64,000 nt of DNA, from assembly GCF_054482525.1 (NCBI RefSeq), contig NZ_CM137006.1; one strand, 5' to 3'. A program made the position numbers and the translations under genes. The notes beneath the pieces were generated by a model. It did not search any database and had not been told where the DNA came from. It saw nothing but the letters and a program-made list of their open reading frames with translations. The stretch's first letter is position 1. Each line of letters begins with the position of its first letter. Positions 16,671 to 18,862 of the stretch are shown piece after piece.

Positions 16671-17687
16671 ATGTCCACATTACGCCTGCTCATCTCTGAC
16701 TCTTACGACCCGTGGTTTAACCTGGCGGTGGAGGAGTGTATTTTTCGCCAGATGCCCGCCACGCAGCGCGTTCTGTTTCTCTGGCGCAATGCCGACACGG
16801 TAGTGATTGGTCGCGCACAGAACCCGTGGAAAGAGTGTAATACCCGGCGGATGGAAGAAGATAACGTCCGCCTGGCGCGGCGCAGTAGCGGCGGTGGCGC
16901 GGTGTTCCACGATCTCGGCAATACCTGTTTTACCTTTATGGCTGGCAAACCGGAGTACGATAAAACTATCTCCACGTCGATTGTGCTTAATGCGCTGAAC
17001 GCGCTCGGCGTCACCGCCGAAGCGTCCGGACGTAACGATCTGGTGGTGAAAACCGCCGAAGGCGACCGCAAAGTCTCAGGCTCGGCCTATCGCGAAACCA
17101 AAGATCGCGGCTTCCACCACGGCACCTTGCTGCTCAATGCCGACCTTAGCCGCCTGGCAAACTATCTCAATCCGGATAAAAAGAAACTGGCGGCGAAAGG
17201 CATTACGTCGGTACGTTCCCGCGTGACCAACCTCACCGAGCTGCTGCCGGGGATCACCCATGAGCAGGTTTGCGAGGCCATAACCAAGGCCTTTTTCGCC
17301 CATTATGGCGAGCGCGTGGAAGCGGAAATCATCTCCCCGGACAAAACGCCAGACTTGCCAAACTTCGCCGAAACCTTTGCCCGCCAGAGTAGCTGGGAAT
17401 GGAACTTCGGTCAGGCTCCGGCATTCTCGCATCTGCTGGATGAACGCTTTACTTGGGGCGGTGTGGAACTGCATTTCGACGTTGAAAAAGGCCATATCAC
17501 CCGCGCCCAGGTGTTTACCGACAGCCTCAACCCCGCGCCGCTGGAAGCCCTCGCCGGACGACTGCAAGGCTGCCTGTACCGCGCAGATATGCTGCAACAG
17601 GAGTGCGAAGCGCTGTTGGTTGACTTCCCGGAACAGGAAAAAGAGCTACGGGAGTTATCGGCATGGATGGCGGGGGCGGTAAGGTAA
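16671..17687 (+). CDS. lplA: lipoate-protein ligase A
   Basis: 338 aa [60 protein letters not shown]... Confidence 0.93.
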
Positions 17688-17718
17688 CTCGCTGATTAAA
17701 ATATCCAAGGAAGGAAAT

Positions 17719-17982
17719 ATGATCGATCTGGAAAACCAGGAACGGGAGATTATCAATTTAATGTTCAGCCAGGGTATATCCTGGATAACTGCCGTGCGTA
17801 TCAGGCATAAACTATCACTTGCTGAAGTAAGTAAAATGTTAGGTATCTCCATTAATTCTCTAAAACAGATCGAAAAGACGGAACGGCTTAGTTCAAACAT
17901 CAAAAGCAAAATGGCAGGAATTTATGGTTGTCCACCAGAGTTGCTGATATGCCCTTCCTGGATGACGGCTGAACATAAATGA
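17719..17982 (+). CDS. small HTH (XRE/Cro-like) DNA-binding protein, strain-specific; sits where K-12 has yjjJ (hipH)
   Basis: 87 aa; HTH-like segment ...ISWITAVRIRHKLSLAEVSKMLGISINSLKQIEKTE...; strong RBS AAGGAAGGA; local sequence is AT-rich. Confidence 0.5.
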   Translation: MIDLENQEREIINLMFSQGISWITAVRIRHKLSLAEVSKMLGISINSLKQIEKTERLSSNIKSKMAGIYGCPPELLICPSWMTAEHK

Positions 17983-18080
17983 ATAGATTCGTGAATAGAT
18001 ACTTGAATGTATTTTATTTTCTATCCATATGAAAAATAATAGTGAATCTATAAATCAGTTGCTATTGATGAATAGATACT
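17980..18080. repeat. cluster of ~5 direct repeats of TGAAT(N2)AT (three exact TGAATAGAT) in the AT-rich spacer between the HTH gene and the deoD terminator; approximate
   Basis: atgaatagattcgtgaatagatacttgaatgtat...agtgaatctat...gatgaatagatact. Confidence 0.5.
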
Positions 18081-18083
18081 AAA

Positions 18084-18112
18084 AAGCCGGAGCAGTCCCC
18101 CACTCCGGCTTA
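18084..18112. terminator. rho-independent terminator hairpin (GCCGGAG-loop-CTCCGGC) flanked by A/T runs, terminating deoD; approximate
   Basis: aaaaagccggagcagtcccccactccggcttaa immediately downstream of deoD stop on the minus strand. Confidence 0.65.
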
Positions 18113-18142
18113 ACACGACGTTCGCCTTTCAGCAAAACACAA

Positions 18143-18862
18143 TTACTCTTTATCGCCCAGCAGAACGGATTCCAGTGCGATTTTGATCATGTCGTTGAAG
18201 GTGGTCTGACGCTCAGCGGCAGTGGTCTGCTCGTGAGTGCGGATGTGGTCAGATACGGTACAGATGGTCAGGGCTTTCGCGCCAAATTCTGCAGCGACGC
18301 CGTAGATACCAGCTGCTTCCATTTCCACGCCGAGGATGCCGTATTTTTCCATCACGTCGAACATTTCGCCGTCCGGAGAGTAGAACAGGTCAGCGGAGAA
18401 CAGGTTACCAACGCGAGCATCAACGCCCAGTGCTTTAGCCGCGTCTACCGCGTTACGCACCATGTCAAAGTCAGCGATAGCGGCAAAGTCATGGTCTTTA
18501 AAACGGATACGGTTAACTTTGGAATCGGTGCAGGCACCCATACCGATAACGACGTCGCGCAGTTTTACGTGTGGCAGAACAGCGCCACAGGAGCCTACGC
18601 GGATAATTTTCTTCACGCCGAAATCGGTGATCAGTTCTTTGGTGTAGATGGAGCAGGACGGGATACCCATACCGTGACCCATTACGGAAATTTTGCGGCC
18701 TTTGTAAGTACCGGTGAAGCCCAGCATACCGCGAACGTTGTTCACTTCACGGGCATCTTCAAGGAAAGTTTCAGCAATATACTTCGCACGCAGCGGGTCG
18801 CCTGGCATCAAAACTACGTCAGCGAAATCGCCCATTTCTGCATTAATGTGTGGGGTAGCCAT
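18143..18862 (-). CDS. deoD: purine nucleoside phosphorylase DeoD
   Basis: ORF 18143..18919; [33 protein letters not shown] start at codon 20. Confidence 0.93.

Follow-up and report, generated by a model that had tools for sequence, protein, structure and literature searches.

The window analyzed here is a 64,000-nucleotide stretch of contig NZ_CM137006.1 (NCBI RefSeq assembly GCF_054482525.1), in which the genes serB (–), ytjB (+), lplA (+), an 87-codon open reading frame (ORF; +), deoD (–), deoB, and deoA follow one another. Our subject is the interval between lplA and deoD, which holds the 87-codon ORF, encoding a small helix-turn-helix (HTH) protein called HTH87 below, and a cluster of TGAAT-type direct repeats. 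The window is Escherichia coli DNA. The interval is 455 bp long, 100% identical to that of E. coli PCN033, and AT-rich: the guanine-cytosine (GC) content drops from 0.58 in lplA to 0.41 at positions 17688–17973 and 0.23 at positions 17974–18083, with 0.54–0.58 in the neighboring genes. The original prediction, made from the sequence alone, had described an AT-rich interval of about 450 bp with a plus-strand 87-aa HTH gene behind a strong ribosome-binding site, and the deoD terminator after the repeats. All of these features were recovered, including AAGGAAGGA ahead of the ORF and a hairpin beyond the repeats (Table 1). The stop codon of HTH87, TGA (17980–17982), forms the first three bases of the first repeat.

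In E. coli K-12, the space between deoD and lplA is occupied by hipH (yjjJ; 1332 bp), convergent with lplA, as had been stated in the original prediction (about 1.3 kb). The K-12 gene has been described as a monocistronic HipA-family toxin kinase gene whose product carries an N-terminal HTH (Gerdes et al. 2021, PMC8262856; Gratani et al. 2022, PMC9948734; Liao et al. 2024, PMC11452175). The homology between the window and K-12 ended exactly at the lplA stop codon and resumed at CAT(T/A)AATGAATAGAT, the complement of the hipH ATG, and no similarity between positions 17688–17973 and yjjJ was found in this comparison. These results indicate that a 286-bp cassette of opposite orientation has taken the place of precisely the hipH ORF, which bears out the claim that yjjJ is absent and that a small HTH gene stands in its place. 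The two loci have in common the deoD–lplA slot, four ATCTATTCA sites, a TTTTCA block, the hipH start codon, and the deoD terminator, whereas the window lacks the 1332-bp ORF, carries the unrelated cassette, and has a spacer of equal length between the distal and proximal sites (about 59 bp) that is only about 40% identical to that of K-12.

The HTH87 haplotype was found in 4057 of 5426 complete E. coli genomes (matches covering at least 80% of the query) and hipH in 1346; the two states were mutually exclusive and together accounted for nearly all of the genomes. Thus, K-12 represents the minority state. Alignment against K-12 and other E. coli genomes, which had been proposed as a check, defined the replacement as anticipated, but K-12 did not hold up as the reference state, the HTH haplotype being the majority.

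Outside E. coli, the order deoD–hipH–lplA/ytjB was found in Salmonella enterica, Citrobacter freundii, Kosakonia cowanii, Cedecea davisae, Erwinia tasmaniensis, and the enterobacterium L017, with hipH orthologues of 48–70% identity. Because hipH is syntenic across Enterobacteriaceae and Erwiniaceae, and because the operator array of hipH must be a leftover where hipH itself is missing, hipH is taken to be the ancestral occupant of the slot; HTH87 is taken to be the replacement, since its cassette has a low GC content and relatives in phages and plasmids. Spacer divergence between the haplotypes, together with an HTH87 homologue in another genus, suggests that the swap is old or has spread by recombination through the conserved flanks. 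In L017 (1856-2830), a palindromic array of about 450 bp resembling repetitive extragenic palindromes and bacterial interspersed mosaic elements (REP/BIME) lies between deoD and hipH, followed by a 163-aa ORF (MSNYRRYYLKGGTWFF...), presumably similar to REP-associated tyrosine transposases; the hipH array downstream of this ORF is intact.

The repeats were identified with the pattern TGAATNNAT, which matches at 17980, 17992, 18004, 18043, and 18069, that is, at five of its ten occurrences in the 64-kb window. When the 110-bp stretch was shuffled 20,000 times with its dinucleotide composition preserved, the pattern occurred 0.19 times on average and three times at most, compared with the five matches observed. 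Among the proximal copies, those at 17980–17988 and 17992–18000 are perfect and that at 18004–18012 is degenerate (TGAATGTAT). The 18043 copy (TGAATCTAT) reads TAAATCTAT in the other sampled alleles (TAAAACTAT in L014), except in the identical PCN033, and this variability marks it as a chance match. The array proper is thus read as three tandem copies plus one distal copy; of the five TGAAT(N2)AT copies first reported, all five matches within 17980–18077 stand, but the 18043 copy does not stand as a member of the array.

On the hipH strand the sites read ATCTATTCA, the reverse complement of TGAATAGAT, and in the window they lie at -101, -36 (two mismatches), -24, and -12 relative to the retained ATG. 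In K-12, three TGAATAGAT copies in 12-bp phase abut the hipH ATG and a fourth lies beside the deoD terminator. The same sites were found at about -100, -36, -24, and -12 from the hipH ATG in K-12 and the six syntenic taxa, in the latter with 0–2 mismatches and with spacers that cannot be aligned. Upstream of Pantoea hipH, where the neighboring gene is not deoD, they occur at -113, -47, -35, and -23. In total, the one-plus-three layout was present in eight hipH-bearing taxa, none of which has an HTH87 gene at the slot. In Salmonella, C. freundii, and L017, a TTGACA/TTTACA -35 element is followed by a -10 element that ends just before the first proximal site, so that the transcription start and a short leader would be covered by the three tandem sites. 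Data from K-12 are in line with this arrangement being a control region: Reg-Seq reported a repressor site without an assigned factor at +30 to +45 of the yjjJ promoter, and on the K-12 genome this site corresponds to TCTATTCACGAATCTA, within the repeats. The four-site array is therefore a concrete candidate for this repressor site. RpoD holoenzyme and H-NS have been found to bind the K-12 deoD/yjjJ spacer, with TTTTCA-18-TCTATT as the proposed promoter. Taken together, the repeats are almost certainly a cis-regulatory array of hipH. A literature search on the 9-mer returned only irrelevant primer matches.

The array appeared to be less well kept where hipH is gone, in small samples of 13 HTH87-haplotype sequences besides the window and four hipH haplotypes of E. 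coli. Among the 13, one 12-bp unit is missing from three (L007, L013, and L014), and mutations affect the ATG-distal tandem copy in most and the distal copy in two, whereas all four hipH haplotypes have three perfect tandem copies. This pattern is consistent with relaxed constraint after the loss of hipH and with an orphaned, slowly decaying operator array in the HTH87 haplotype.

Rare third states of the lplA–deoD locus were observed in strains WB61 and TB354. In WB61 (L005, 2949-3140), an internal deletion of hipH left the N-terminal HTH-coding part and the last few codons, and the remainder carries the annotation of a partial 'transcriptional regulator' pseudogene. All three tandem repeats of this strain are perfect, and its distal repeat reads CGAATAGAT. 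In TB354 (L006, 2717-3175), IS200C lies in the hipH upstream region just past the distal ATCTATTCA and splits this site from the deoD terminator.

HTH87 is labeled 'helix-turn-helix domain-containing protein' in RefSeq, and matched Pfam HTH_3 (PF01381) over residues 25–76 with an i-Evalue of 2.3e-5; Sigma70_r4 scored 1.7e-5 over the same helix-turn-helix. The AlphaFold2 model (predicted local distance difference test score 88.9) has seven helices and shows an XRE bundle with an extra N-terminal helix. Foldseek placed CylR2, C.BclI, SinR, and P22 c2 at the top of the PDB matches with a probability of about 1.0, with E-values of only 0.02–0.2. HTH87 thus resembles the small XRE/Cro-C1 repressors (CylR2, the C proteins that control restriction-modification systems, the SinR N-domain, P22 c2, and 434 Cro) in its predicted helical HTH bundle, with template modeling scores of 0.5–0.6 normalized to the query, but differs from them in the extra N-terminal helix (residues 4–18), the lack of a palindromic operator beside the gene, and a very narrow taxonomy. 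Its homologues were essentially limited to Escherichia and Shigella, every one of them in the lplA–deoD slot, and a scan of one genome per species with the HTH87 alignment returned two Escherichia loci only. Among 1.84 billion representative proteins searched, one other full-length relative was found, P0081 (87 aa, 41% identity); its gene immediately follows lplA and precedes deoD on a short enterobacterial contig whose lplA is 80% identical at the DNA level, and no clear repeats follow the gene on this contig.

More distant relatives point to toxin-linked regulators of mobile elements. PHROG 7241 matched HTH87 with 2.5e-9 over profile positions 54–121 of 122, and tblastn identified relatives with 28–36% identity over residues 3–77, namely regulators of 118–124 aa whose genes immediately follow those of ParE/RelE-like toxins in Pasteurella phage Pmp14 (gp33), Enterobacteria phage PPyecE_EH1910 (gp290), and a Leclercia plasmid (pZ96-1_2). 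One of the neighboring toxins matches Pfam ParE_toxin (6e-8), and the Pmp14 regulator combines a RelB-like N-terminus (Pfam, 4.4e-5) with HTH_3. The HTH half is homologous, with the shared motifs S(L/W)LxA(W/V)RI, LxQIEK, and IY(N/G)CxPExL. In the alignment, HTH87 corresponds to the C-terminal two thirds of these regulators and lacks the N-terminal residues (about 50); the RelB-like segment is absent from both HTH87 and P0081. Unlike these regulators, HTH87 has no adjacent toxin gene, its upstream neighbor being the housekeeping gene lplA at a distance of 31 bp, and it carries a short extra C-terminal tail (CPxW...). We consider it likely, by homology, that HTH87 derives from this ParE/RelE-linked antitoxin-like family, and it would be best described as a solo HTH domain of the family without a toxin partner.

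A related arrangement was seen on a metagenome contig (L011, 3147-3647 and 3794-6079), where P0084, a 129-aa protein of the RelB-like plus HTH type, adjoins a DUF2357/PDDEXK_7 gene, and a 35-codon ORF lies 4 bp upstream of P0084, where a toxin gene would be expected. Two other origins of HTH87 were considered and rejected. The first is a relationship to HipB, the antitoxin of hipBA, which has been reported to rescue YjjJ toxicity and is likewise an XRE-type HTH protein of about 88 aa; unlike HipB, HTH87 has no hipA-like partner, the NCBIfam HipB model gave no match, and a PDB sequence search returned only CylR2 (E 0.7). The second is descent from the N-terminal HTH of HipH, as a remnant or by inversion; neither strand showed similarity to it at the nucleotide or protein level.

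The HTH87 gene is intact in the window. In 14 carriers taken by evenly spaced ranking of the 4057, eight alleles were intact, five carried the nonsense change Q50*, and one carried a frameshift (about 40% broken); the Q50* carriers belong to the HS-like class, with about 94% identity. Pairs of intact alleles mostly gave ratios of nonsynonymous to synonymous substitution rates (dN/dS) of 0.1–0.3, and pairs with the most divergent allele, L014, gave 0.35–0.71. The low values support a translated, constrained protein. HTH87 is apparently dispensable, and in the window strain it is, on balance, probably still a functional DNA-binding protein. As no terminator-like site was found between lplA and HTH87, read-through transcription from ytjB–lplA into HTH87 is inferred. 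In another genome (L003; GCA_037201855.1, 4001-4204), HTH87 starts with GTG behind a weakened ribosome-binding site and has lost the helix-turn-helix through an internal deletion; all four repeats there read TGAATAGAT despite the decayed gene.

Table 1. Features of the lplA–deoD interval and its flanking genes in the window.
Feature	Position	Strand	Remarks
lplA (lipoate-protein ligase A)	16671..17687	+	Left anchor of the swap; K-12 homology up to the stop codon
Haplotype-specific low-GC cassette, 286 bp	17688..17973	+	Exact place of the K-12 hipH/yjjJ ORF; no nucleotide similarity to hipH
Shine-Dalgarno-like AAGGAAGGA	17707..17715	+	Precedes the HTH87 start codon
HTH87, 87-aa XRE/Cro-C1-type helix-turn-helix protein, WP_000566139.1	17719..17982	+	
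Former hipH start codon, kept	17974..17976	–	CAT on the + strand; doubles as HTH87 His86
17-codon ORF MNRFVNRYLNVFYFLSI	17979..18032	+	By-product of the in-frame 12-nt repeat period
Three proximal hipH operator repeats, 12-bp phase	17980..18012	–	ATCTATTCA on the hipH strand
TTTTCA	18030..18035	–	Sole conserved spacer block relative to K-12; proposed -35 of the K-12 yjjJ promoter
TGAATCTAT, fourth copy of the original prediction	18043..18051	+	Strain-specific; outside the array
Distal hipH operator repeat	18069..18077	–	101 nt upstream of the former ATG
deoD intrinsic terminator	18084..18111	–	Hairpin, then T-run on the – strand
deoD (purine nucleoside phosphorylase)	18143..18862	–	Right anchor

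A structured RNA in the interval was also considered and ruled out, as the Rfam 15 covariance models gave no match on 17400–18400 at E-values up to 1. On the minus strand, a 27-codon ORF (MFSRHPGRAYQQLWWTTINSCHFAFDV, 17893-17976) is opened by the retained hipH ATG and lies antisense to the HTH87 3' end; its translation would require the orphan promoter to be still active. Upstream of lplA, ytjB is disrupted in O157:H7 genomes (L016, 10028-11716; L008, 1-453). In the Sakai genome (NC_002695.2, L016), one annotated 1689-bp 'lplA' comprises ytjB and lplA, and ytjB of NE1127 is flagged as a partial pseudogene.

We regard it as likely that, as a whole, the locus is explained by a swap of the hipH ORF for a solo antitoxin-like HTH gene, with the repeats as a relic hipH operator. 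The slot would originally have been occupied by hipH, encoding a HipA-family toxin kinase with an N-terminal winged-HTH domain, and its control region would have combined a weak promoter with four direct ATCTATTCA sites flanking it, three of them in 12-bp phase against the start codon and the fourth 64–66 bp further upstream. The ORF would then have been replaced, from start to stop codon, by the low-GC cassette in the opposite orientation, leaving behind the promoter/operator array and the ATG. HTH87, having lost its N-terminal, presumed toxin-binding part, would be translated from its own Shine-Dalgarno sequence on read-through ytjB–lplA transcripts and, where intact, is predicted to act as a small dimeric transcriptional repressor independent of the repeats. 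In hipH-bearing strains, the repeats would most likely be bound by the N-terminal HTH of HipH, resulting in autorepression. Thus, the suggestion in the original prediction of a remnant of a different toxin-antitoxin or phage-derived module proved apt in two ways: the repeats appear to be a relic of the regulatory region of the hipH toxin gene, and HTH87 is akin to the HTH half of ParE/RelE-linked regulators of phages and plasmids.

Several points weigh against this explanation. The fraction of HTH87 pseudogenes comes from the 14-genome sample and is not a full count. The likeness of HTH87 to the antitoxin-like family is remote, at the 28–36% identity given above, and the NCBIfam antitoxin models that hit HTH87 all scored below their cut-offs. 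The out-of-genus homologue P0081 is a single sequence on one short contig, a cluster singleton from one Logan assembly. The array is largely intact in most HTH87 haplotypes, with the spacer length kept, and may thus have a residual function, for example as an active antisense promoter or as a binding site for a host factor. Finally, chromatin immunoprecipitation with exonuclease digestion (ChIP-exo) of tagged YjjJ in K-12 detected no binding sites, and autoregulation by HipH is therefore kept here as an inference.

As the factor that binds the repeats, HipH itself has about an even chance. The recognition helix (ISQATFSRL) and wing (GKARATRYAL) of HipH were close to invariant across the compared taxa. 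As a competing possibility, to which we give clearly less weight, the repeats of hipH-bearing strains could be bound by a conserved host regulator, such as a cyclic di-GMP (c-di-GMP)-responsive or MarA-like protein, so that the array of the window would be an orphan site of that regulator. The ChIP-exo result fits this possibility, as do the assignment by Reg-Seq of the neighboring -24 to +18 site to MarA and of the repeat site to no factor, and the finding that the native hipH promoter region mediates induction by c-di-GMP. The HipH protein has been found to bind c-di-GMP directly, so that no additional factor would be needed to account for the induction. The array accompanies hipH even where the neighbors differ, as in Pantoea, and the 9-mer is nearly invariant like the HTH and wing of HipH, both of which argue against a host regulator. 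Autoregulation by the HTH-bearing component is the rule in type II toxin-antitoxin systems, which likewise favors HipH. To our knowledge, none of the motifs of Cra, ArgR, TorR, and CreB fits three direct repeats with 12-bp phasing.

It is also conceivable, but unlikely, that the orphan hipH promoter/operator still works and, from its preserved promoter-like elements and ATG, drives antisense transcription into the 3' end of HTH87 and lplA, thereby tuning HTH87/lplA, either by firing constitutively without HipH or through a host factor that recognizes ATCTATTCA. The -35-like TTTTCA, the 64–65-bp spacing, three of the four sites, and the ATG have all been kept, and RpoD holoenzyme binds the homologous spacer of K-12. 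The promoter match is weak (4+4 of 12) and was not picked up by a consensus scan, and the repeats are being lost in some lineages, which speaks for a relic rather than an active promoter. A more far-reaching proposal combines both halves of the locus: HTH87 would be a domesticated solo DNA-binding domain of an antitoxin, maintained in many Escherichia lineages and either silencing incoming modules by occupying the operators of phage or plasmid addiction modules of the ParE/RelE type, or controlling the orphan hipH promoter, which would fire antisense into HTH87–lplA; and the one-plus-three ATCTATTCA array would be the autoregulatory operator of HipH, releasable by c-di-GMP, across the Enterobacterales. 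We offer this combination as speculation that is improbable in its entirety.

The original prediction had also suggested a small regulator with its iteron-like binding sites. In this reading, the TGAAT repeats would serve as operators to which HTH87 would bind, downstream of its own gene, to control lplA–HTH87 or deoD. HTH87 and the repeats are indeed adjacent, with the HTH87 stop codon inside the first repeat, and the array was recognizable in all HTH87 haplotypes sampled. However, K-12 and seven other taxa have the identical array beside hipH but lack HTH87; within E. coli, the array is perfect with hipH and eroding with HTH87; and the homologue P0081 in another genus has no clear repeats. 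Among HTH87 haplotypes, the best-kept arrays were found in the nonsense lineage (HS and Ec1119), whereas copies have been lost or carry point changes in lineages with intact HTH87. Inverted repeats are the typical targets of XRE-type dimers, and the array consists of direct repeats. These results make it very unlikely that HTH87 is the cognate regulator of the array, and the relic hipH operator is preferred.

The 17-codon ORF noted in the original prediction does overlap the HTH87 TGA in an ATGA arrangement, but it is not supported as a translated gene. An ATG arises in ATGAATAGAT, and repeats spaced 12 nt apart leave the reading frame open, which accounts for the ORF. Its counterpart has 17 codons in K-12, Salmonella, and Kosakonia, and has 10–13 codons or lacks the first start in the other four taxa, so a conserved small gene was rejected on the variation of start, stop, and length across the seven taxa. 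That the repeats are conserved for encoding a short repetitive peptide (MNRFVNRYLN...), either translationally coupled to HTH87 or divergent from hipH, is hardly credible: K-12 does have a same-frame 17-codon ORF (MNRFVNRYLNRFINTFH), but it has no gene after it, the length varies across genera, the first start is lost in C. freundii, the Erwinia ORF stops after three repeats, and the distal fourth repeat lies outside any such ORF.

Within the literature that could be searched, no account of the HTH87 gene (ECs_5344 in O157 Sakai), of the replacement polymorphism, or of the ATCTATTCA array was found. The locus is best regarded as polymorphic for the replacement of a toxin gene by a solo antitoxin-like HTH gene, with the operator persisting as a relic, and not as a new kind of system. 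HipH has been studied as a persistence and biofilm toxin in K-12 and uropathogenic E. coli strains. In roughly three quarters of complete E. coli genomes, O157:H7 among them, hipH is missing and the unrelated small HTH gene is present instead, often as a pseudogene; therefore, conclusions on HipH are not transferable to the whole species. In addition, the four-site ATCTATTCA array, which extends from Escherichia to Erwinia and Pantoea, provides a lead on the regulation of HipH.

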